Notes under the pieces: model-generated
Told to the model about the DNA's origin: nothing
The model's database searches: none
Seen by the model: the letters and a program-made list of their open reading frames with translations, nothing else
Made by a program: the position numbers and the translations under genes
From: Escherichia phage vB_EcoM_G2133
Sequence record: MK327928.1
Length of the DNA: 64,000 nt
Strand: one strand, 5' to 3'
Part shown: piece by piece, positions 1 through 63,311 of the stretch
How the letters are laid out: each line of letters opens with the position of its first letter
How positions within the stretch are numbered: the stretch's first letter is position 1

Positions 1-11
1 AATTTTCCTTA

Positions 12-2244
12 TTAGGCCGCAAGGGCCTTCATAGTTTTAGCGATTTGGGAAACTTCATCATCGCTTAAAGAATTACGATAACCGATGAAGTCGGAAACAA
101 TACGGAATTTCTTGGTAAACTCAGCAACCATTTTATCACTATTTTTTGAAGCATTACGTGATAATTCATCAAAGAGATTAGTTACTGTCCAGATATCATG
201 ACCGATGGTATCTTTTCCACCATTGAAATACACACCGCGTAATGAACTAACCATATTACCAAGTCGTGTATATTCTTCAGAAACTTCATCTGTACTGAAG
301 TACTTCATCATAAAATCTAGTTCAGGATACTTGATAATTTTATCAATATATCGTTGAGCTGAACTTGAATAACCTACATACTTATCATAATCTACATCAT
401 CAAAAGCATCTACATATAAATCACGCAAAGCTTCAAAAATACATTGGCACTGACCGAGTTCTTTTACCTTTTTCTGTAAAAGCGGACGAATAACATAAAA
501 TTCATTAATGCCAATAAGATTAGCCATACGAATCAAAATATTCATAGATGGATGACAAAGTGATGTAGTACCATCCAGCCATACGAATCAAAATATTCAT
601 AGATGGATGACAAAGTGATGTAGTACCATCCATAGAGAAAATATCAGAACGATGCATATACGCTACATAACCAGTAATTTCATCTGCTTCTGACGTAAGT
701 GTAAATAGTTCCTCTTTTTCCCAGCGCCCGTCTTTAATTTCAAACTTAAATGCTGTAGCAGCTTTAGGACGAGGAGCTTTACTTTTAACTACCTTTGGAA
801 TATAGCTTTTAACTAAAGCTTCAATTTCTGACAAATAATGAATGTTAACTTCATCACTTTCAAACATCGCTATAATATCAGGAAGCAAATCAATCTGCGA
901 TTCTACTTCTGGATTAATAAACAGAAGGCGTTCGTTGTGATGAATATTCAAAGCGTTATTAAATTCACTATCATCTAACGCACGTGCTAATCCACGGACA
1001 ATATTAACACGATTTTTAATATTATCAATAACAATATTAATTTTTGTTGTATTAATACCAAACAGACGATAGCTTGATGCAACGGCTGAAGTTTCATGAC
1101 TTTGCTTAATGCGTTTCAGTCGAGGGTCAAGATTTACTTCATACACAACTCCTGCATTGCATAACTTACTATCAGGTTCAAACATACTCTGCATCTTTTT
1201 ATATGACAGATTTTTAGTCGTGAATTTGACTGAATTACTAATCATATAATCTCGAGCAGAATACCCCATCTTCATCAATTCACGATATGTGTGACGAGGA
1301 GATGTAGATTCTTTAAATCGTTTTACATCTTCATTAAATGCTTTCTCACTGAGTTCTTTAACACGCTCAATAATATTTTTACGAGTACGATCATCCAGCG
1401 AAAGAGCCTCGCGAGATGGAGCAATATCAAGTGAACCCATTGGAAACTTAATGTAATTCACTTCATTGCGAATGCTTAGCCAGTTACGGTCTCTAATAAC
1501 ACCATCGATAGGATAAACAATACCGCCATAGATAGCATATAATCCACCACGATCAGGCCAGTATCTTTCTGGATTTACACCGTAATAGTCATCAAAATCC
1601 GGAAAATAATCAATTTCGCGGTCAAGACCGTTAATGATAGCCAAATCTTTGAACGGTCGCATGATATAAGAAACTTCATAAGCAAAGTTTCTAAAGTCTT
1701 TTTCTTCAACTGGAACTACGATTTCAATACCAGTTTTATCATCTGGACCCATTTCTTTTACGAATGTAGGTTTAATCTGTGGGCCATCGCCATCCATGTA
1801 AGCTACATAACCACGAATTTCACCTTTATGGTATGAAGTAATACTAAACGTATCAGTATAACTAAACGGAGATTTAGAACCTAAACCAAATCCGCCAATG
1901 AAATCGTTAGATTCAGCCTTAGATGAACTGAAGTATGAATTATACAGACCAGGAGAATTATCATCACCCTGAATATCAAAATCACTCATACCCGGACCAA
2001 AATCTCGGCAAACAAATCGTGGATCTAAACGTCCAGGAACTTGAATGATAAATTTTTCAGGATTTCCATTGAGAGCATGGGCATCAATCATGTTGGTAAT
2101 CAATTCACGGACTACTGCGCGAATTTTGTTTGTATACAAATCAGATGACAGAATTTTAAATACTTTAGGAGATGCTGTGATGCTAAATGCTTTTGATTTA
2201 GAACCATTACCAAGAATTGTTTCTTTTTCAGTGGTGATAATCAT
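12..2244 (-). pseudogene. rIIA: rIIA rapid-lysis gene, frame broken by a 55-bp tandem duplication (574-codon ORF 520..2244 plus stranded 3' part 12..545)
   Basis: N-terminus [20 protein letters not shown]; both ORFs encode MNILIRMA at the junction; removing one 55-bp copy gives a single 725-codon ORF. Confidence 0.85.
522..631. repeat. perfect 55-bp direct tandem duplication (2 copies) inside rIIA
   Basis: 522-576 and 577-631 are identical: agccatacgaatcaaaatattcatagatggatgacaaagtgatgtagtaccatcc. Confidence 0.95.
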
Positions 2245-2254
2245 AATTTCCTCA

Positions 2255-2458
2255 TTAATTCATATTACGCTTAATAACTTCAGCAACTTCTAGTAGTTCA
2301 TCTTTAGTTGCGGTGTCGGATTGAATTTTATCTCTAATATCTTTAAAGCGGTTTTTAAATTCTTCGGCTTCTCCCATATCGAAAAAGCGTTGAATGATTC
2401 TATATTCTCGATGAACTGCTTTATCAAAAAGTTCTAAATTTACTTTATATGATTTCAT
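2255..2458 (-). CDS. hypothetical small protein (rIIA.1-like)
   Basis: 67-aa ORF between early promoter 2484..2513 and rIIA. Confidence 0.5.
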
Positions 2459-2483
2459 TTCAATATCCTCATTTGCCCAATTA

Positions 2484-2513
2484 ATTATACCACATCCTTG
2501 TGGTAAAGTAAAC
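2484..2513 (-). promoter_or_regulatory. T4-type early promoter (GTTTAC, 18-bp spacer, TATAAT)
   Basis: minus strand GTTTAC (2513..2508) and TATAAT (2489..2484) preceded by tgg. Confidence 0.6.
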
Positions 2514-4333
2514 TACTGGCTCATCCATTCTTTACGAAGGTCAGCATTATCTCCCATAAGCATTTCAAAAAGCTCTTTCCAATTCTCAGGAAGTTTAACA
2601 ACATCATATACTGGGTTTTGAATCATCTCACGATATTCAGATTTTTCCAAAGAGCCAAGTCCTTTAATATAACGGATGCTATGTTTAGGTAGAGCATCTT
2701 TGGCACTCTCATATTCAGCGACTGTATAAAACCATTCTTGTTTTTTACCGACCTGAGCGATGATTACAGGAGTTTTGACAAAGCGAATTCGTCCTTGTTC
2801 AAATAGTTCTGGCCAATTACTAAAAAATCCGAGCAGAGAAGGATAAATGCTTCCTAGACCATCATGGTCAGCATCAGTCATAATAGCAATATTGCGATAA
2901 TTCAAGTTTTCAGCTTTTTCACCAAGAACTAGACCAGTGATTGCGCAAATATCAAATAGTTCTTTGTTTTTAAGCATATCAGCATATGACATACCCCAAC
3001 TGTTGAGAACTTTACCACGTAATGGATAACCACCATGAAGTTCTTTATCACGAACATCAATAAGATAGCCGATAGCAGAATCACCCTCAGTCAAGAAAAG
3101 AGTAGTATCAGCATCTTTACCGCAAAGATTCGCTTTAATATGTTTATGAACCTTAGCTTTAGAAGCCTTTTTAGCTGCTTTAGTTTCTGCTGCTTTTTCT
3201 GCCGCCAATTTACGAGCCAAAGCAGCTTCAATAATCGGCATTAGAATTGCTTCATTATTTAGAATAGCGCGTGAAATCTTTTTAGCATCAAGCTGAATAT
3301 GACTACGAATTTCGCCAAATGGAGAAGTCAAACACTCTTTAGTTTGAGAATCAAATCGCATGTTTTTCATATCACGAACAAACATAACGATAATCAAACA
3401 TTCTTTGACACGCGCTTTAGTTACATCAATTTTGAACTTACGTTTGATTTGTGGAATAAGGTCTTCACAAATATCATCCATAACACAATCAATGTGATGG
3501 CCACCATTCTTAGTGTGAATGTTATTCACATAAGTTAATTGACGAAAACCATCCGGTGAACGACCAACCGCAATAGAACAATTTTCTTGCTCTTGGACGA
3601 TAGCATGCTCATCATATTGGCGTGCATATTTCTTAAAATTGCCCTGAACCTTTTTACCATTAAAGGTAAATTGAATATCAGGATAAACAACAGCAAGTGT
3701 CTGGAGACGATCCAGTGTAATGTCAAGATAAACTTGGGACAGCTCATTAGTTTCAAATGACATAAAATCAGGAATGAAAGTAACACGAGTTCCTTTCCAT
3801 TTTCCAGGAATATCTTCCCATGATTTATTTTCCATGCCATTTGAACAACGAACTACAATATTATTTTGACCATCACCAGTTTCACCGACAAACATCACAG
3901 AAAAAATGTTTGTCAAACTAGAACCAACACCGTTCATACCACCAGTGACGCGTTCTTTATCATCACCAAAGTTACCACCTGCTTTTGGAATAGTCCAGGC
4001 AGCAACTGGACCAGGAATTTCTTCACCGGTAGGTGTTTTAACCATCGCCTGTGGAATACCACGACCGTTATCTTCAACTGTTACTTGATTGTTTTTAATA
4101 GTAACATTAATTTTATTTGCGAATTTAAACTTAGTACGAATACCTTCATCTACTGAGTTATCGATAATTTCATCAATAAGCTTAACAAGACCAGGTACAT
4201 ACTGAACACTTTCCCATTTACCAAACAGAAAGCGCTCATGCATTTCATTAGCAGAAGAGCCAATGTACATGCCACTACGCTTTTTGATATGTTCAATATC
4301 GCTCAGAATTTTAATTTCATTCTTAATCATCAC
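2513..4333 (-). CDS. 39: DNA topoisomerase II large subunit gp39 (ATPase plus Toprim), uninterrupted
   Basis: 606-aa ORF; N-terminus MIKNEIKILSDIEHIKKRSGMYIGS; Toprim LTEGDSA; DNGRGIP ATPase motif. Confidence 0.85.
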   Translation of the reverse strand: MMIKNEIKILSDIEHIKKRSGMYIGSSANEMHERFLFGKWESVQYVPGLVKLIDEIIDNSVDEGIRTKFKFANKINVTIKNNQVTVEDNGRGIPQAMVKTPTGEEIPGPVAAWTIPKAGGNFGDDKERVTGGMNGVGSSLTNIFSVMFVGETGDGQNNIVVRCSNGMENKSWEDIPGKWKGTRVTFIPDFMSFETNELSQVYLDITLDRLQTLAVVYPDIQFTFNGKKVQGNFKKYARQYDEHAIVQEQENCSIAVGRSPDGFRQLTYVNNIHTKNGGHHIDCVMDDICEDLIPQIKRKFKIDVTKARVKECLIIVMFVRDMKNMRFDSQTKECLTSPFGEIRSHIQLDAKKISRAILNNEAILMPIIEAALARKLAAEKAAETKAAKKASKAKVHKHIKANLCGKDADTTLFLTEGDSAIGYLIDVRDKELHGGYPLRGKVLNSWGMSYADMLKNKELFDICAITGLVLGEKAENLNYRNIAIMTDADHDGLGSIYPSLLGFFSNWPELFEQGRIRFVKTPVIIAQVGKKQEWFYTVAEYESAKDALPKHSIRYIKGLGSLEKSEYREMIQNPVYDVVKLPENWKELFEMLMGDNADLRKEWMSQ

Positions 4334-6804: not shown

Positions 6805-7338
6805 TTAATTTAAAATAGCTACCACCGCACTACGAGGTACTACGCTAAAATCACCTGCATGAACAACATTCAGAAGTTCAACGCCATCTTCAATCCATTG
6901 GTCTGTTACCCAACCACAGACCGAAATAAATGGAGTCTTGATAGCTACCGCACGAGTCAGAAGGTCAGTAGGATCGCATTCTTGGAAGAGGATGAATTCA
7001 TCTTCATAAACCAGATTTTTCTCTATTTTGTTATTATCTAAACGACGACCGTGGACAATATAAGATTTAGTAAACCATTTACTTTTTTCAAAGTCTTCAA
7101 CAATAAATTCGCCTTCGCCAAAAACATCAGTCAGAATTTTATGGCCGGAAATCAAGGCATTAGTTTTAATTTTAGGTTCAACTAGTTTGTAGGTTTTGCC
7201 GATTTCAATAGCGGTAGTCATAATAGGTTCCTTAATTTCCAGTGGTTTAACAGGGCATACATAAGTACTTACAACATCAAAATCAACCAGTTTAGCTGCA
7301 GGATTTGGTGTGTATTCAGGATTATAATTAAATTTCAT
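6805..7338 (-). CDS. hypothetical protein, MotB paralog
   Basis: 177 aa; C-terminal TDQWIEDGVELLNVV matches motB TDQWVEDGVKLYNVV. Confidence 0.5.
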   Translation of the reverse strand: MKFNYNPEYTPNPAAKLVDFDVVSTYVCPVKPLEIKEPIMTTAIEIGKTYKLVEPKIKTNALISGHKILTDVFGEGEFIVEDFEKSKWFTKSYIVHGRRLDNNKIEKNLVYEDEFILFQECDPTDLLTRAVAIKTPFISVCGWVTDQWIEDGVELLNVVHAGDFSVVPRSAVVAILN

Positions 7339-15916: not shown

Positions 15917-16431
15917 TAACCTCGGTCTTGACGAGCGAAGTTTTCAGCATTTTTCAGATAATAAAGTTTAAAGATTTCTTCAGCTGACATTCCAAGAGCA
16001 ATGAATTTATTCATGAAAAAGTGAAATTGGTCAATCAGTTCAAATTTAATTTCAAGCTGATCTTCAGGAGATAAGTCTTGAATTTTCTTGGATTGCATTT
16101 CAGAATAACGTTTCTTCCAAGGTTTCCATACGGCAGAAGCTTCTTTTTCACCATTACTCATACCACCAAGAGAAGTATATAGCTCGCGAGTTTCGTCTGC
16201 GATATAATCGTCTTGGTTTCGCAGCCAAGCAAGAACTTCTCCTGCGGTTTCAAGTGAATCAGGATGACGATTTGTTTCTGGTTTATCATTAGCCAAACGA
16301 ATCTGTAAATGCCGCTGCATATCAAGCATAACCTGCAGTGGGTCAATATTGTGCATAATATTCTCAGCATATGCACGATTTGCTTTATCAACACCTTCGA
16401 TCAAATGAGCACATTCATTAAAGTGAGCCAT
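15913..16431 (-). CDS. 56: dCTPase/dUTPase gp56 (MazG-like); start at ATG 16431
   Basis: 172 aa from MAHFNECAHLIEG with AAGGA ribosome-binding site; track ORF extends upstream through the promoter. Confidence 0.7.
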   Translation of the reverse strand: MAHFNECAHLIEGVDKANRAYAENIMHNIDPLQVMLDMQRHLQIRLANDKPETNRHPDSLETAGEVLAWLRNQDDYIADETRELYTSLGGMSNGEKEASAVWKPWKKRYSEMQSKKIQDLSPEDQLEIKFELIDQFHFFMNKFIALGMSAEEIFKLYYLKNAENFARQDRGY

Positions 16432-16465
16432 TATTTTTCCTTTCAATTCATGGGTTAGTAGATTA

Positions 16466-16490
16466 ATTATACAATAAATATATAAAGCAA
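16466..16490 (-). promoter_or_regulatory. MotA-dependent middle promoter for gene 56
   Basis: minus strand TTGCTTTA, 11-bp spacer, TATAAT. Confidence 0.45.
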
Positions 16491-16502
16491 TAAGGAGGAC
16501 AT

Positions 16503-16703
16503 ATGGTACAAAAATTAATGGCACTTGTTAATGCCATCAAAGGTAATAAAAAGCGTATAGCTTTTACTATTTCTGCTATGGTAGGAATTTTACTCTGGAA
16601 CTTTATTTTATCACCTGTTGCAATTGCGCATGGTATTAATATTCCAGTAGTTACTCTTGATACATTCGTAGATTTAGCATTTGCTTTAGTTGGGTTAATT
16701 TAA
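16503..16703 (+). CDS. small hydrophobic protein (two predicted transmembrane segments) on the plus strand
   Basis: 66-aa ORF in the gp56/gp61 intergenic gap; AAGGAGG 5 nt upstream of ATG. Confidence 0.45.
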   Translation: MVQKLMALVNAIKGNKKRIAFTISAMVGILLWNFILSPVAIAHGINIPVVTLDTFVDLAFALVGLI

Positions 16704-18523: not shown

Positions 18524-18816
18524 TATTCACCTACTACTTCAGCGATGATATTTTTATTATTAAAGTTTTTATCGCAATACAGAACATAATTATACTGCAT
18601 TACACCACCAGACTTAAGCTGTTTTTGCACTTCAGCTTTCATTTCAGGGCGATCGCGCTCAACGATATTCATAATATCTGCTTCAATTTGAGTTTCAACC
18701 TCAGTCTGATCTGCCGTCATAGACCATTCGCACAAATCTTTATCATAACCTGCCATAGCAGGCTGAGCAGCACAAGAAGCTAAAGCAAAAATTGTGGCAA
18801 AGATAAATTTTTTCAT
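18523..18816 (-). CDS. sp: Spackle-like periplasmic protein
   Basis: 97 aa with cleavable signal peptide MKKFIFATIFALASCAAQPAMA. Confidence 0.65.
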   Translation of the reverse strand: MKKFIFATIFALASCAAQPAMAGYDKDLCEWSMTADQTEVETQIEADIMNIVERDRPEMKAEVQKQLKSGGVMQYNYVLYCDKNFNNKNIIAEVVGE

Positions 18817-22409: not shown

Positions 22410-23252
22410 TTAATCAACTGCTATTGGATGAATAGCATTAAACTTATGAAATGCTTCTGATTTTTCTTTACGCGAAACACACATGCGAAGAACCTTTAAT
22501 GGCTCGTCTTCTTCACCCAACGATTTTCGTTTTTCAATATTTGATGTTTTCCAACGAGCTTGCTCTGGAAACTCTCTATTGATTTGCTCAAGCGCTCTAT
22601 TATGTTTAGAATTACTACGAATTGAACTACACCCACCGGGAGCGTGTGATTTTCCAGATACAACTAGATATTTGAACAAGGCCAAATGCGGATAACCTTG
22701 ATTAATTAAATTGAGAAATGCATACATATCTTCGCATAAATCAATTTTTCCATACCCAATTTGTTCTGTCGTAAGTTTTCCGAGGTCATACCATGTATTC
22801 GTGAATCCATATGAGTTTTCACGATAATTACCCCAAGATGAAGTAATTTTAAAAATTGGTAGACGAGCATGACCGTGATAATACCCGCAATCCATGGCAT
22901 CTTCAACGTATTGAATCAATTCATAGAACTGTTCACGAGTTAATTGATTAATTTTATCTACACGCCGTTTATCGTCTCTCTTTCGTATTGAACTCATACG
23001 AATAGTAGTATCATCATCAATCATCCAGATTCGTTGACCTGCATACATATCAGTAATTGCTTTACGAGTACCGGCAATTCCATTAACATCATCAGGAATA
23101 GTTATAATTTTAGCTCTAGACCCATAAGCATCATAATAAGCTTTTTCTTCGTGTTCACGCACTACAATATGGGGTTCATAATCAGTCGGAAACATATTAA
23201 GGGCAGAAACTGCCCCTGCACGTTGATAGCTCGGAATTACGAATTGAATCAT
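22410..23252 (-). CDS. GT-A fold glycosyltransferase at the beta-gt locus (possibly beta-glucosyl-HMC-alpha-glucosyltransferase)
   Basis: 280 aa; DxD motif in IWMIDDDTTI; much shorter than the 351-aa T4 beta-gt. Confidence 0.45.
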   Translation of the reverse strand: MIQFVIPSYQRAGAVSALNMFPTDYEPHIVVREHEEKAYYDAYGSRAKIITIPDDVNGIAGTRKAITDMYAGQRIWMIDDDTTIRMSSIRKRDDKRRVDKINQLTREQFYELIQYVEDAMDCGYYHGHARLPIFKITSSWGNYRENSYGFTNTWYDLGKLTTEQIGYGKIDLCEDMYAFLNLINQGYPHLALFKYLVVSGKSHAPGGCSSIRSNSKHNRALEQINREFPEQARWKTSNIEKRKSLGEEDEPLKVLRMCVSRKEKSEAFHKFNAIHPIAVD

Positions 23253-23890
23253 TTAAGTGCCTTGCATTTGTCAAAATGGTATCTTGTCATATTTGGCCCA
23301 CGTCCTTTTAGTCCGCAATGCGGACATATTTTTTCTATCAAATTATGAGGTTTTCCTTTACGATTTTTAGACATCGTTTCTTTAATTATTTTAGCTTTTT
23401 CTGCGCCAAAAATTTCTTCATAAGTTTTACCAGAATTTTCCTTTGCTCGATTTATAATTCCATATGCCTGCTCATTTTTACCATACATTGGATTACCTTC
23501 GCCTTTCATTCTTTTAGAATGATCAGGACGCTTGATTCCACGAAAGGCATTTCCGCACTTATATCTTTCTTCTGGAGATAGTTTTTTACCGTACATTCCA
23601 TTTAATTTGCCTGGAAAACTTCCTCCCCATGCTTCATTCTTTAAATTATATGAATCCGGACAATTAGCAGCATCTAAACAAGTTAAAATAATTTCTTCAA
23701 CCTGTCTAAACATTGGTCCTTCATATAATATTTCTTTATTAAAGGATTTTATTCCATATTTCTTTTTAGCATGTTGCCAAACTACACCCGAACCATCATA
23801 ATTCGGGTTGTGACCATCATGACTTCCTATATACCACTTTTTAGTTTTAGGATGTTTATACTTATAAACATGTGGCACATTTACTTCCAT
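23249..23890 (-). CDS. GIY-YIG homing endonuclease (Seg-like)
   Basis: 213 aa; HVYKYKH...KWYIGS motif; C-terminal zinc finger CPHCG. Confidence 0.6.
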   Translation of the reverse strand: MEVNVPHVYKYKHPKTKKWYIGSHDGHNPNYDGSGVVWQHAKKKYGIKSFNKEILYEGPMFRQVEEIILTCLDAANCPDSYNLKNEAWGGSFPGKLNGMYGKKLSPEERYKCGNAFRGIKRPDHSKRMKGEGNPMYGKNEQAYGIINRAKENSGKTYEEIFGAEKAKIIKETMSKNRKGKPHNLIEKICPHCGLKGRGPNMTRYHFDKCKALK

Positions 23891-33399: not shown

Positions 33400-34261
33400 T
33401 CACAATGAAGAAAATTCTTTAACTAAAGCCTGTAATGAAGCCTCTATTGGATATCCATTCTTAACTAACATTTTCCTAAACATCACATGTTTAGGACGAT
33501 TATATGATATCCACAATTCATACAATTTATCTTTATTATCCCAATGATAACCTTTTCGTCGAGATGCTATATGAGCTTTTCTAATCTCCGGATTTTTCCA
33601 ACTAGCAGCTACTGAATTTGATATAGCTATTTTATATTCAGGTTTTGATAAAGCAGCACGAACAGCCTTTTGGTGTTTAATTTTATTTTCTTCGTTATTA
33701 AACCATTCCCTTGAAGCCATTGAAATTTTTTGTTTTGTTTTAAAATTATTTAATCTTTCTTTGTTATCTTTCCTATTTTTTGCTACTGAAAAATATTTTA
33801 ATGCCCTTTCTCTAGCAGCATTTCTATTTTGCGGATTTGAATAATACTGTTGAAGCCTTTTTGATATTGTGTCACTTACATCTTGTTTTATAAAACTATA
33901 CTCAGCAGCTATTAAATCAACTTCGGCTAAAGATAAATTTTTATATGTTTTTCCTGACATCATTCTATTTAAAGCATTTAGCATTTAGCATTTTTCCATT
34001 TTTACCTTTTGCTAATAAGAAATGTGCTTTAAAATGATTAAAATGACTTAAATTAACTAAATTCCATGTAGATTTTAAATATTCAGGAAATATTGATTTA
34101 GGAAGCACGTGGTGTGCTTCCGTTTTACCTGGAGTTTTAACAGTTGAATTCATAGAAATAAAATTAATGTAAGACTTGGCGTCTTCTTCACTCAACGCTA
34201 ATTTTTCAACTAATTCCTTTATTAAAAATTCATCATTAATGTCAAGTTTAAAATTCTTCAC
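33400..34261 (-). pseudogene. HNH homing endonuclease (Mob-like) split into two ORFs by an extra copy of a 7-bp repeat
   Basis: ORF 33965..34261 carries HNH motif EAHHVLPKS...NLVNLS...HFKAHF; ORF 33400..33984 matches the C-terminal half of the intact HNH ORF 53868..54647. Confidence 0.65.
33973..33993. repeat. heptamer agcattt x3 (minus strand aaatgct) at the HNH frameshift point
   Basis: three exact tandem copies; two copies would give a continuous reading frame. Confidence 0.9.
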
Positions 34262-41145: not shown

Positions 41146-41616
41146 TTAATCATGTTTCCACACCCCATCGGTATTTGACCAAAGCCGCTGATTATCTGAT
41201 CCTCGCCACAGCTTTTTAGTCGGAAGATTTTTCTCATACTTCCCATCAATAATAACATCAACATATTTAAGCATTTCTAGTTGTTTAATATCTTCAAACT
41301 TATATCCTGTCCACAACCAAATGCTTTTATTGGGATAAAGATTTTTTACTGTTTGAACAATACAATGAATAACATCTCGATTGTCAGGATAGAGAGGGTC
41401 TCCTCCAGTTATAGTCAATCCTTCTATATAATCATTATTCAAACATTCAATTAATTGTTCTAGTGTTTCACCAGTGAATGGAATACCATTTCTAGCATTC
41501 CATGTTGATTTATTATAACACCCTTCACATTTATGCAAACAACCTGTAACGAAAAGAACGACCCTGCAACCAGGGCCATTCACAAAATCGCAAGGATAAA
41601 ATCTATCATAATTCAT
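41146..41616 (-). CDS. nrdG: anaerobic ribonucleotide reductase activating protein NrdG (radical SAM)
   Basis: 156 aa; CLHKCEGCYN cluster motif. Confidence 0.8.
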   Translation of the reverse strand: MNYDRFYPCDFVNGPGCRVVLFVTGCLHKCEGCYNKSTWNARNGIPFTGETLEQLIECLNNDYIEGLTITGGDPLYPDNRDVIHCIVQTVKNLYPNKSIWLWTGYKFEDIKQLEMLKYVDVIIDGKYEKNLPTKKLWRGSDNQRLWSNTDGVWKHD

Positions 41617-43430
41617 TGGTGTTTAACCCTATGCATGATTTCTTTATTTTTGCCGAGATTAAATCCGCGTTCGTTCGGATTTCCCAAATAACCACATGTT
41701 CTTCTTATGGTATTCATCTTTTTAGGATCAGTTTCTCCACAAATAGAACAAACAAATCCGTTTTCAGTAGGAGTCATTTCATGGGTACTTCCACATGTAA
41801 AACATTTATCTACCGGCATGTTAACACCAAAATAATCTAAATGTTGTGCAGCATAATCCCATACAGCCTCAAGACCTTTTAGATTATTTTTCATATCAGG
41901 AAGTTCAACATAAGAAATGTGACCACCTGTCGCAATGAAATGATATGGCGCTTCACGAGAAATCTTTTCAAACGGAGTAATATTTTCTTCTACTGAAACA
42001 TGGAAACTGTTAGTGTACCAGCCTTTATCAGTAACATCTTTTACACTTCCATATTTTTCTGTATCGAGTTTACAGAAGCGATAACAAAGGTTTTCAGCAG
42101 GAGTAGAATATAAACTAAAAGCAAATCCGGTTCTTTCAGTCCACTGTTTAAGATGGGCATTCATTTTAGTTAAAATTTCCTGTCCAATATCACGACCGAC
42201 AAGAATATTCAATTCGTGAATACCAATGTATCCTAGGGACACTGAACTTCTACCGTTTTTAAATAACTCAATTATGTCGTCATCAGGTTTAAGACGAACC
42301 CCGAATGCACCTTCTTGGTAAAGAATAGGAGCAACAGTAGCTTTAACTCCTTTTAAGGAACTAATTCTACACATCAAAGCTTCAAAACATAAATCCATTC
42401 GTTCATTGAATAATTCAACAAATTTCTGTTCATTGAACTGTGTTCCAATATAAGAATCTAACGCTATGCGAGGAAGATTCAATGTTACAACACCAAGATT
42501 ATTACGTCCATCAAGAATTTCATTACCAGTCGAATCTTTCCATACGCTCAAGAAACTACGGCAACCCATTGGAGAAACAGGAACAGATGAACCAGTGATA
42601 GCTTTATTGTTCTTAGCTGAAATAATATCAGGATACATTCTTTTGCTTGCGCACTCTAAAGCAAGCTGTTTAATATCATAGTTCGGATCGTCTTTATAAA
42701 GATTAACACCTTCTTCAACGAACATAACAAGCTTAGGAAAAATAGGAGTTATCCCATCACGACCGAGACCTTTAATACGATTTTTCAGAATTGCTTTCTG
42801 AATCATTCGTTCAGTCCAGTCAGTTCCCGTACCAAATGTAATTGTTACAAAAGGTGTTTGTCCGTTTGAACTAAAGAGAGTATTTACTTCATATTCATAA
42901 GCTTGGAATGCATCGTATACGTCTTTTTCTGTTTTAGATTGAGCATAATTCAGTGCATCGGCGATTTGCCATTTTTCTGCATCCTCAATATGTTTTGCAT
43001 AGGTACGTTTAACATAAGGAGAAAGTACTTTATCTACATTCGCAAAAGTCGTTCCGCCGTACTGGTGTGAAGCAACCTGTGCAGTAATTTGTGCCATAAT
43101 TGCAGTAGCAACACCGATTAATTTAGGAGTTTCAATCTGCGCATTACCAAGCTTAAATCCGTTCTCAAGCATTCCTTTTAAATCTACTAAACAACAATTA
43201 GTAAATGGAAGAGCAGGGGAATAATCAATATCATGGAAATGGATAATTCCGCTTTCATGCGCTTTCATAATAAAAGACGGGACCATATTTTTGGCAATGT
43301 GTTTAGACACAATACCAGCCATAAGGTCCCGTTGAGTTGGAAAAACACGAGAATCTTTATTAGCATTCTCGTTTAAAAGGTCTTTATTAGTTTTATGAAT
43401 CAATCCTTCAATTTCTTTTTCAATTGTCAT
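41613..43430 (-). CDS. nrdD: anaerobic ribonucleotide reductase NrdD, uninterrupted
   Basis: 605 aa; C-terminal glycyl radical motif RRTCGYLG; zinc ribbon CFTCGS...CSICG. Confidence 0.85.
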   Translation of the reverse strand: MTIEKEIEGLIHKTNKDLLNENANKDSRVFPTQRDLMAGIVSKHIAKNMVPSFIMKAHESGIIHFHDIDYSPALPFTNCCLVDLKGMLENGFKLGNAQIETPKLIGVATAIMAQITAQVASHQYGGTTFANVDKVLSPYVKRTYAKHIEDAEKWQIADALNYAQSKTEKDVYDAFQAYEYEVNTLFSSNGQTPFVTITFGTGTDWTERMIQKAILKNRIKGLGRDGITPIFPKLVMFVEEGVNLYKDDPNYDIKQLALECASKRMYPDIISAKNNKAITGSSVPVSPMGCRSFLSVWKDSTGNEILDGRNNLGVVTLNLPRIALDSYIGTQFNEQKFVELFNERMDLCFEALMCRISSLKGVKATVAPILYQEGAFGVRLKPDDDIIELFKNGRSSVSLGYIGIHELNILVGRDIGQEILTKMNAHLKQWTERTGFAFSLYSTPAENLCYRFCKLDTEKYGSVKDVTDKGWYTNSFHVSVEENITPFEKISREAPYHFIATGGHISYVELPDMKNNLKGLEAVWDYAAQHLDYFGVNMPVDKCFTCGSTHEMTPTENGFVCSICGETDPKKMNTIRRTCGYLGNPNERGFNLGKNKEIMHRVKHQ

Positions 43431-47785: not shown

Positions 47786-48807
47786 TAGTTCAGTGCATTT
47801 AGTGCATTGTTCAGTTTAGAACGTTGCTTTGTCAGATTTTGAACCCTTGACTGAGCTTGTTCTAACGCCTTTTCAGCTTCTAGCACTTCATTGGTCGCTT
47901 TAACGAGTTCATCATCTACTGCCTTAAGAGACTTCTCAATCGCGTCAGCGTGCCATTTTTCTACAGGTTTAAAATTTGAATTTTCAGTAGGAAGAAAACT
48001 CACTTTATTAAGTTTACATGCATCTTTATTACCTGAACTATACATCCAAAATTTAGGATCGTTTGATAAGTAATTAGATAAATTTAAGTTATCTTGCACT
48101 TCCTGCTTTTTCTCTTGTGTAACTTCGTCCTTTCTCAAAAAATCATATTTAAATGAAACGATCATATCAAGTTCATATGTTGTCGTATCTAATTTAAATC
48201 GTTCGAAATGCTGCGAAATCTTAGACTGAACAGCAGAAACAACATCCATATACTTAAATGCTTCTGTCAACTGTGATTTAAGGCATTCACAAATTGAAAG
48301 AGAATTTTTTGTATTAGGTTTAAAGCTAATTCGTGCAGTTCTATTATTTTCTTTTAATGGTCTTACTTCCATCTGAAGAGTATAACCATCAAATTTCAGG
48401 TTCTTTAAGTTAATATCAGAACCTTTTAATCGACTCGCAGTTGATAAAATTTGCTTTAATTGTCTACGGAACAGAGCAATAAATCTCCATTCAATACGAT
48501 AATGATTTGGATTGAAAAATCCAGATGATAAATCGACCTTACTTTGACCAACGCCTTGAACAAATAGAGGATTTTTATAATCAATAGTTTTACAGAAATC
48601 GGTGAGCTGCTCACGAGCAGTCATTTGTGTAATATACCCTGCTTCATTAAAATTACGCACCCATTCACTGCTGTTCAGATGTTTAAAGGCGTGAATGGAA
48701 CAATTAACTTTATTAAGGTCTAAATTATTTTCACACAAAAATGTCATAGCATCACGAGTATAGCTTGCATTACGAACCATATCTTCAATTTGAGAACGAG
48801 TTTTCAT
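47785..48807 (-). CDS. coiled-coil C-terminus protein, paralog 3 of 4
   Basis: 340-aa ORF. Confidence 0.5.
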   Translation of the reverse strand: MKTRSQIEDMVRNASYTRDAMTFLCENNLDLNKVNCSIHAFKHLNSSEWVRNFNEAGYITQMTAREQLTDFCKTIDYKNPLFVQGVGQSKVDLSSGFFNPNHYRIEWRFIALFRRQLKQILSTASRLKGSDINLKNLKFDGYTLQMEVRPLKENNRTARISFKPNTKNSLSICECLKSQLTEAFKYMDVVSAVQSKISQHFERFKLDTTTYELDMIVSFKYDFLRKDEVTQEKKQEVQDNLNLSNYLSNDPKFWMYSSGNKDACKLNKVSFLPTENSNFKPVEKWHADAIEKSLKAVDDELVKATNEVLEAEKALEQAQSRVQNLTKQRSKLNNALNALN

Positions 48808-56721: not shown

Positions 56722-57108
56722 TTATTCGAGGGAAAGAAGATATTTACTCTGGTAAAACATTCCAGTAATATCATCTATAGTGCTTTGGATGGCTGGAGGC
56801 ATTTCTTTATAAATGCTGTTAGATTGGTCTAATATGCGATCAATCATTTTAATTGTGTCGGTAGGAAGTTTACTGGCATCTGGAATTGAAGGTGTGTATT
56901 TTCTACCAGAATACCCCAAATACTGCTCACCAAATTTGTCAATCAAATCTGGTAACTCGGAGAAAATAAAATCGTATGCTTTATGTCTAGCATAACTTTT
57001 AGTTTCAAAATGTGCAGAATGAAAATAAGCTTGTGCAGCCATTAATAAACCTAAGTATTCATCTGCCTTTGAAGGTTTTCCACTTTGTGAAAAGTCGCTG
57101 AATTTCAT
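56722..57108 (-). CDS. hypothetical protein
   Basis: 128-aa ORF. Confidence 0.45.
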
Positions 57109-57398
57109 TCAGTCTCCAATTTAATGTTCATAATTCTAGCGTATGATTGTGCCATCTCCGCGCCTCGTTCTATACATTCAAAATCAGAAGAGCACGGGTC
57201 ATTTTTATAGGTCGTTCTCATAAAACTATAGAATTGTTCAGACGATTCTACGCTTTTATTTTCAAAAAGCATATAAACATGTCTAATACCAGATTCCATA
57301 AATTTATCAAAATGAGGATCGACATTCGCTTCAATTGGTGGAGATAAAGCAAATGACAATCCTAGCATGGCAAATAGTGCCGTTGCTTTTAAGGCCAT
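57105..57398 (-). CDS. rI: lysis inhibition regulator RI
   Basis: 97 aa; MALKATALFAMLGLSFALSPPIEANVDPHFDKF with N-terminal signal-anchor. Confidence 0.7.
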   Translation of the reverse strand: MALKATALFAMLGLSFALSPPIEANVDPHFDKFMESGIRHVYMLFENKSVESSEQFYSFMRTTYKNDPCSSDFECIERGAEMAQSYARIMNIKLETE

Positions 57399-61222: not shown

Positions 61223-61482
61223 ATACTGGCTTCTTTGAGTTTCGTTTTAGCAATAGTTAACTGATCGAGGCTTTCGGCATAATTCTTCGCGAATTCACAG
61301 TCTTCACAATTATCTAGTGCTTCCCAAAATTCATCGTATAAAGCGTCAAAGATAAGTCCTAAACGAACTTCAGCATCTTTGATAGCATTCACTTTACCGA
61401 TTTTCTCTTCAGTATGTGGCTTATAACCTTTAATATCTTCAATCATATTTGACTTCCTCACCAGTACATAAATCATATTCAA
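61180..61482 (-). CDS. hypothetical protein
   Basis: 100-aa ORF. Confidence 0.45.
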
Positions 61483-61660
61483 CTAAACGAATAGGTTCAT
61501 GAATGCCATATCCTTGAACAGAAATTTCTGTCGTAGGATAAATTCCATCAATATCACCCATGGTCCACGCTTCATTAAATTGCTGTTCGCCTGAATTACT
61601 AAACCACTCGGCGAAAGCATTTAGCACATCTTTAGAACCTTCAATAATTATCTTTGCCAT
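61439..61660 (-). CDS. hypothetical small protein
   Basis: 73-aa ORF. Confidence 0.4.
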   Translation of the reverse strand: MAKIIIEGSKDVLNAFAEWFSNSGEQQFNEAWTMGDIDGIYPTTEISVQGYGIHEPIRLVEYDLCTGEEVKYD

Positions 61661-62361: not shown

Positions 62362-62943
62362 CATTCCGATTACGAAAAACTGTGGACGAGTAATACCACC
62401 AATACAACAGTTAATATTACAGCAGCAGTGTACAGTGTCAATATGGACACTATAAATCTTATCCATATCAGGAGATTTGACAGGCTCATCAATTATATAC
62501 AAAATTCGCGAAAGCGATAAACCTCTGAACTTGCTTCCTTTATTACCTATAAAACTGCGCACAGAATCAGTAAATAAACGAAAACGTATATCATCATTAG
62601 AATAACGCGAAAATTCCTTTTTAATGTTATTTGCAGAAATTTTAGCGTAAGCTGAAGTATTAGAAAGAACAATAACTGTTCCGCCATCATACAGCCAATT
62701 AGCAGCAAAGTTAGTCACAGCAATTGATTTACCGGATTGACGTCCACCATCTAGTCGAAGTGTGCAATACTGTTTAAGTAAATCTTCAAATGGCGGAATA
62801 TATTCGTTTTTACAAATTTCTTCTACTCTAGCATCAGAATGGTGTGTAAAAGCATTCATCAGGGATAGATAAGGTCCAGTTAAAAATGTTCTCATTTTAT
62901 TCTCTCTAAATTTGGGCCATTCCATGGCGCATGAATTGTCCAT
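62356..62943 (-). CDS. P-loop NTPase with Cys-rich C-terminus (start ATG 62943)
   Basis: 195 aa from MDNSCAMEWPKF; Walker A GGRQSGKS; Walker B ILYIIDEP; tail HCCCNINCC. Confidence 0.45.
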   Translation of the reverse strand: MDNSCAMEWPKFRENKMRTFLTGPYLSLMNAFTHHSDARVEEICKNEYIPPFEDLLKQYCTLRLDGGRQSGKSIAVTNFAANWLYDGGTVIVLSNTSAYAKISANNIKKEFSRYSNDDIRFRLFTDSVRSFIGNKGSKFRGLSLSRILYIIDEPVKSPDMDKIYSVHIDTVHCCCNINCCIGGITRPQFFVIGMQ

Positions 62944-63008
62944 TTCTGTATTTACCCCCTCCAAGTAATTATGATTATACTATCACAATTCTAGGAGAAA
63001 GTAAACTG

Positions 63009-63311
63009 TTATTTACCTTTAATTACTTTAGCTGCTTCGATAGCCGCTTGCTGAAGGTCATCCATAGACATACCGAATTTAGAAGCAAAGTTATCAATTT
63101 TCTTTTCGACAGCATTCAAAGGCTTGGCCTGTTTACCTTCATTAGCGCCAGGAAGAGCGAGAATACGCTCTTTGTCAATATAAAGGCTTACAAGTTTCTT
63201 ACGGTCTTTATCGGACAAATCATGAAATGAATGGGCCTTTTTATTTATAGCGGCTTCTAATTTACCTGCACTCACTCGCGCTTCAGTAATAAATTCTTGA
63301 TATGTTTTCAT
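63009..63311 (-). CDS. ipII: internal protein II (packaged in capsid)
   Basis: 100 aa; N-terminal capsid targeting sequence MKTYQEFITEA. Confidence 0.75.
   Translation of the reverse strand: MKTYQEFITEARVSAGKLEAAINKKAHSFHDLSDKDRKKLVSLYIDKERILALPGANEGKQAKPLNAVEKKIDNFASKFGMSMDDLQQAAIEAAKVIKGK

Follow-up and report, generated by a model that had tools for sequence, protein, structure and literature searches.

SPAdes, at its defaults for reads shorter than 150 nt, and metaSPAdes use 55 as their largest k. In the case of the T4-like phage 132, the default SPAdes contig carried 55-bp overlapping ends; these were trimmed off first, and only then was the sequence re-opened at the T4 start. For cheese phages, 127-bp 'artefactual DTRs' of de Bruijn assembly have been described. 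The Phage Annotation Guide (PMC8785237) names terminal repeats in mid-sequence and artefactual circularisation among the common assembly problems, and advises that T4-like genomes be opened after rIIB (PMC8785237). If trimming were omitted from a workflow such as that used for phage 132, the product would be a perfect internal 55-nt tandem repeat.

Tandem duplications of the classical rII kind far exceed 55 nt in length. As to the sequences found at the boundaries of rearrangements in T4, segmental amplifications show 6–10 bp of microhomology (Srikant et al.), earlier work, including that on rII tandem duplications, found 2–10 bp (as cited by Srikant et al.), and deletions show roughly 3–13 nt (Wu et al., PMC8262927). 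A smaller kind of change is known from the rIIA genes of T2, T4 and T6, where +/-1 slippage in an A6 run constitutes a homopolymer 'contingency locus' (bioRxiv 10.1101/2025.10.21.683753).

Here we describe a perfect 55-nt tandem duplication inside the rIIA gene of Escherichia phage vB_EcoM_G2133 (record MK327928.1), of which a stretch of 64,000 nt, referred to below as the window, was analysed. The closest known match to this locus is the documented k-mer overlap artefact: it shares with the 55-bp SPAdes overlap of phage 132 perfect identity, two copies, a k-sized length and a setting in a T4-type, circularly permuted genome whose opening was moved to the T4 start, whereas, unlike the published overlaps, which lay at contig ends and were trimmed, it is internal and lies within a gene, 521 nt from the record start. 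It resembles the classical frameshift and duplication mutants of T4 rII (Benzer; Crick et al. 1961; Kumagai et al. 1993) in its location in rIIA, in a length that is not a multiple of three, in the truncated product and in the stranded distal part, but it differs from the classical duplications in that the phage is not T4 and the junction homology is 1 nt as against the reported 2–10 nt. If real, it would also be comparable to the rIIA contingency locus as a frameshift that inactivates rIIA reversibly and entails the same trade-off between lysis inhibition and RexAB sensitivity; unlike that locus, however, it is a 55-nt duplication and not a +/-1 slippage, and the corresponding run in the window (six T at 142, + strand) is unaltered. 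Taken together, the comparisons reported below lead us to regard the duplication as probably a finishing artefact, namely an untrimmed 55-nt assembler overlap that would be absent from the phage DNA.

Identity of the genome

The window covers the initial 64 kb of a Tequatrovirus genome whose start was set by the T4 convention. Its first 62 nt (1..62, +) are identical to the T4 reference NC_000866 and the record starts exactly at T4 coordinate 1; as rIIA is colinear with that of T4 (12..2189) after one copy of the repeat is removed, a re-opening of the assembly took place. The closest database genomes showed only 95–97% identity across 25 kb stretches, with at most 97% to any record.

The gene for the topoisomerase II large subunit (2513–4333, -) is a single uninterrupted gene of 606 codons, and lacks the T4-specific gene 60/60.1/mobA insertion and its 50-nt translational bypass, so that the phage is not T4. 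Exact protein look-up with both start variants of this 606-aa subunit gave no match on record. The possibility that the sequence came from T4 proper or from one of the classical laboratory strains with an rII mutation was considered and was ruled out by the unsplit topoisomerase large subunit, the absence of dam, beta-gt and denV, and 75 mismatches to T4 in rIIA. No dam homologue was found between genes 56 and 61 (window ~16431–16703) and no denV between vs.8 and ipII (window ~62943–63012), while beta-gt, segF, mobB, mobC, 49.2, 49.3 and tk.1 are likewise without a counterpart in the window.

Further differences from T4 were seen at several loci. The nrdD gene (41613–43430) is unsplit, with 605 codons, and lacks the nrdD intron with I-TevII. 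The place occupied in T4 by segA and beta-gt holds instead two ORFs of 280 aa (22410–23252, -) and 213 aa (23249–23890, -), of which the former encodes a beta-glucosyl-HMC-alpha-glucosyltransferase (PHROG 842, E = 2e-87), indicating glucosylation of the T2/T6 type, and the latter a homing endonuclease; another homing endonuclease ORF lies at 33400–33984. T4 motB.1 is replaced by a 177-aa ORF (6805–7338, -) with a full-length match to PHROG 2333 (unknown function); the C-terminal 40 residues of the ORF also match a MotB-like regulator family.

Structure of the duplication

Two identical 55-nt units lying back to back inside rIIA had been noted from the sequence, and both Tandem Repeats Finder and pattern matching confirmed them at the positions given in Table 1. 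Tandem Repeats Finder reported one array at 522–632 (period 55, 2.0 copies, 100% matches, 0 indels, score 222), by far the strongest in the 64 kb window, where all other tandem repeats scored 56 or less. The runner-up (47803–47844, period 22, 1.9 copies, 80% matches, score 56) is situated in the nrdC.4/nrdC.5 boundary region. The unit, AGCCATACGAATCAAAATATTCATAGATGGATGACAAAGTGATGTAGTACCATCC, runs from AGCCATACGA to ...ACCATCC and, with up to 3 mismatches allowed, was matched in the window only by the two copies themselves (0 matches expected, 100 shuffles).

Table 1. Positions in the window of the two repeat copies and of the reading frames into which rIIA is divided.
Feature	Position	Strand	Description
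Copy 1	522..576	.	100% identical to copy 2; would be the 3' terminus of the contig as first assembled if the repeat is an untrimmed overlap
Copy 2	577..631	.	would be the 5' start of the original contig on the same assumption
N-terminal rIIA ORF (ORF1)	520..2244	-	574 aa, comprising RIIA residues 1–556 and an 18-aa out-of-frame tail (tblastn)
C-terminal rIIA ORF	12..545	-	177 aa; start is the wild-type Met549 inside the second copy (along the gene)
Stop/ATG overlap	520..527	-	ATGGCTAA on the gene strand; TAA of ORF1 at 520–522, in-frame wild-type ATG (Met555) at 525–527

The novel junction falls between 576 and 577 (...GATGTAGTACCATCC|AGCCATACGAATC...), and the 28-mer that spans it is GATGTAGTACCATCCAGCCATACGAATC. 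The period-55 register is prolonged by 1 nt only (A at 522 and at 632), giving a junction homology of 1 nt. When arbitrary 55-nt cuts were made in this window, 53.5% shared 0 nt, 28.7% 1 nt, 17.8% at least 2 nt and 0.17% at least 6 nt; the observed homology is therefore at chance level, as 82% of such cuts give 0–1 nt. The breakpoints showed neither repeats, direct or inverted, nor quasi-palindromes that keep to the 55-nt period: a nearby CCATA pair is spaced by 51 nt, not 55, and hence out of register. The duplication boundaries bear no restriction sites or scars.

Reading frame and protein products of rIIA

The original prediction, that the duplication breaks the rIIA frame and leaves the 5' ORF with an 18-residue tail, was borne out. 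T4 RIIA residues 1–556 matched the window with 98.7% identity (tblastn), and the break between the two ORFs comes at residue 556 of 725, with the TAA stop of ORF1 created at the distal duplication boundary. The lesion thus lies within the rIIA coding sequence and destroys its frame, as a loss-of-function change in rII would. The further statement that 177 codons are stranded held in part: a 177-codon ORF is indeed present, but because it begins at an ATG in the second copy it re-encodes 8 residues (MNILIRMA) already contained in the first ORF, and the wild-type part that is truly stranded amounts to 169 codons. The C-terminal fragment matched positions 546–724 of the 725-position PHROG 612 profile 'RIIA lysis inhibitor' (E = 1e-39). 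On reading the sequence, no Shine-Dalgarno motif was seen upstream of either candidate ATG.

Deletion of one copy yields, as had been foreseen, a single 725-codon ORF at 12..2189, coordinates which are also those of rIIA in the T4 reference. Alignment to T4 rIIA, which had been proposed as a check, showed the restored gene to be colinear, with no indel and with 75 differing positions, and the restored RIIA protein differs by 2 residues from its top database match (P0001). Residues 43–143 of RIIA gave a weak match to HATPase_c_3 (GHKL-type ATPase), below the Pfam cut-off, and no solved RIIA structure was found by which residue 556 might be judged as a domain boundary.

The flanking genes had been described as intact, and tblastn with 119 T4 proteins agreed with this for rIIA.1 and the topoisomerase gene. 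In the same comparison rIIA was the only disrupted gene in the 64 kb window, and the other lysis-inhibition genes rI (57108..57398) and sp (18526..18816) were intact. With nothing else broken in 64 kb, the rIIA duplication is an isolated event, and not a sign of general decay or poor base-calling.

Occurrence of the junction in other sequences

A 40-mer centred on the junction was used as a probe, with seeding possible solely via the junction-spanning 28-mer. It found no match in 50,697 phage records, 20,395 E. coli genome records and 72,556 plasmids, and exact junction patterns were absent from IMG/VR, JGI metagenomes and GTDB genomes. In all of the matching Tequatrovirus phage records (~497), a 601-nt query across the locus aligned to ~546 nt, that is, to one copy. 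The neighbouring gene gave a concordant picture, in that 10/10 independent contigs encoding an identical RIIA.1 carry an rIIA of 725 codons; identical rIIA.1 occurs in thousands of contigs, and none of the ten retrieved exceeds 97% identity to the window.

At the protein level, exact look-up of the 574-aa and 177-aa rIIA fragments gave no match on record, and all of the best 120 matches listed in a protein search with RIIA are 725 aa long, from which no base rate of broken rIIA can be derived. A literature search for a 55-bp rIIA duplication returned nothing relevant.

Origin of the duplication

An untrimmed overlap could have arisen as follows. A circularly permuted genome of the T4 type would form a closed cycle in a de Bruijn graph assembler, and this cycle would be output in linear form, with the same k bases at both ends of the contig. 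If such a contig were re-opened at the T4 start with neither 55-nt end removed, the old ends would be joined head to tail. A perfect two-copy 55-nt tandem duplication would result wherever these ends happened to lie, in this case in rIIA and 521 nt from the new start, and the rIIA frame would be broken on paper only. We infer that an assembler and parameters of this kind were used and that the reads would lend the junction no support. Four independent properties of the locus probably reflect such an overlap. The repeat length equals an assembler k-mer size (55 nt, as in the SPAdes overlap of phage 132); the record was rotated after assembly, as its 62 initial nucleotides shared with NC_000866 indicate; the copies are identical, adjacent and exactly two; and the breakpoints are arbitrary, with no homology above chance (1 nt). 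The absence of the junction from all collections searched and the otherwise undamaged 64 kb also count in favour of an artefact. What chiefly speaks against one is the position, since rIIA, a non-essential gene and classic mutational target whose lesions laboratory stocks tolerate or select for, makes up ~1.3% of the genome (2.2 kb of ~167 kb) and a random contig end would fall in it only that often. By our own order-of-magnitude weights, the length favours an artefact tens-fold and the junction homology ~3–4 fold, while the position favours a real lesion ~10-fold; weighed together, these place the artefact clearly ahead, yet do not prove it.

It had been proposed that the duplication is a discrete lesion of the classical rII type, whether spontaneous, selected or engineered. 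In its natural form this would be a spontaneous rIIA frameshift allele genuinely present in the phage stock and fixed by plaque picking or laboratory propagation. Such a biological lesion is not the best-supported reading, given the k-sized 55 nt, the re-opened record and the chance-level junction homology, and we consider it unlikely, although it has real points in its favour. The change sits in a classical mutational target, in a window whose other genes, rI and sp among them, are undamaged, and for a genuine lesion this position is about tenfold likelier than for a random contig end. Moreover, loss of rII is tolerated and recurs in laboratory evolution, the trade-off between lysis inhibition and RexAB sensitivity being documented, and tandem duplications in rII are known in T4, according to the passages of Srikant et al. 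that cite Kumagai 1993. Biology, however, has no preference for exactly 55 nt, the length of the documented SPAdes overlap, and the boundaries do not lie at direct repeats of 2–10 nt, as in T4-type recombination duplications, but share 1 nt, compared with the 2–13 nt typical of T4 events; against this, not every genuine duplication needs microhomology. Similarly, the allele occurs in no other sequence searched, but a recent real duplication would be perfect and unique too. A direct repeat of 55 nt should also be unstable in a phage of the T4 type, in which recombination is very active. The identity said to be required for classical homologous recombination is ~50–150 nt (Wu et al., PMC8262927) and 55 nt lies within this range, so that a real duplication would be expected to revert frequently to rIIA+. 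This property could make the duplication a reversible switch, from which rIIA+ is regained at high frequency by recombination and in which a split RIIA made via reinitiation is partly functional; we regard such a switch as very unlikely. Were it to exist, it would constitute a larger-scale analogue of the rIIA homopolymer contingency locus.

Two further explanations were weighed against the untrimmed overlap that we favour. In a hybrid of the artefactual and biological accounts, the join would again be an untrimmed 55-nt overlap, but the contig would have ended in rIIA because minority r variants in the lysate had branched the assembly graph there. De Bruijn contigs do end at graph branch points, and hypermutable sites in rIIA together with minority variants have been found in read sets of T2, T4 and T6 (bioRxiv 10.1101/2025.10.21.683753), so that this scheme would account at once for the k-sized length and for the improbable position. 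It is nevertheless purely inferential, and the sole long homopolymer run in this rIIA (six T at 142) is ~380 nt away from the join; we judge it to be quite unlikely. Constructs with direct repeats in rII are a classical means of measuring deletion and recombination by rII+ selection on lambda lysogens, and this tradition is what speaks for an engineered direct-repeat reporter; an in-silico edit of the record belongs to the same class of explanation. Yet the phage is neither T4 nor another laboratory workhorse (unsplit topoisomerase, without dam, beta-gt or denV, and no more than 97% identity to any record), and the boundaries are free of restriction sites and scars, which makes deliberate construction or editing extremely improbable.

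Implications for the record and for the phage

If the duplication is an artefact, the record is 55 nt too long and its rIIA would be wrongly called a pseudogene or two genes, with the consequence that a wild-type phage could pass for a rapid-lysis, Rex-sensitive mutant. Comparative genomics, inference of host range or of defence systems, and therapeutic dossiers based on the record would all be affected. A simple screening rule for re-opened circular assemblies follows from this, namely that any perfect two-copy tandem repeat of 55, 77, 99 or 127 nt be checked against the reads.

If, alternatively, the lesion is real, RIIA would be truncated past residue 556 and would end in an 18-aa junk tail, with the C-terminal 169 residues out of frame, and the phage would be predicted to lyse rapidly, forming r plaques on E. 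coli B, and to be excluded by lambda RexAB. Termination-reinitiation at the stop/ATG overlap (Table 1) could then yield an N-terminal (residues 1–556) and a C-terminal (555–725) fragment. The allele would be one more member of the best-known class of phage mutations, and knowing of it would help in interpreting the plaque phenotype of the stock and its plating on lambda lysogens. Nothing here is new in kind, whether the duplication is an artefact or a real lesion.

Other divided or frameshifted genes

The rIIA gene of Escherichia phage vB_Eco_EH2 (OZ034684.1, locus 1767–3889) is also annotated as two CDS, the first of which is likewise 574 aa long. Unlike the duplication described here, the split in vB_Eco_EH2 is due to 1-nt deletions in homopolymer runs (T6 to T5, A4 to A3), which suggests homopolymer base-calling errors, and the shared length of 574 aa is a coincidence. 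The rIIB region of vB_Eco_EH2 is similarly annotated as two CDS.

An apparent second frameshift in the window, in vs.5, was considered as a sign of poor assembly and rejected, as the vs.5 homologue (61440–61660, -) is an intact ORF of 73 codons, compared with which the T4 reference has 1 nt fewer (TTTCGCGAG in T4 versus TTTCGCCGAG in the window). Owing to this difference the annotated 58-aa vs.5 of T4 continues in another frame past codon 17, and from the sequence comparison the T4 vs.5 annotation may represent a frameshifted or aberrant version of the gene.
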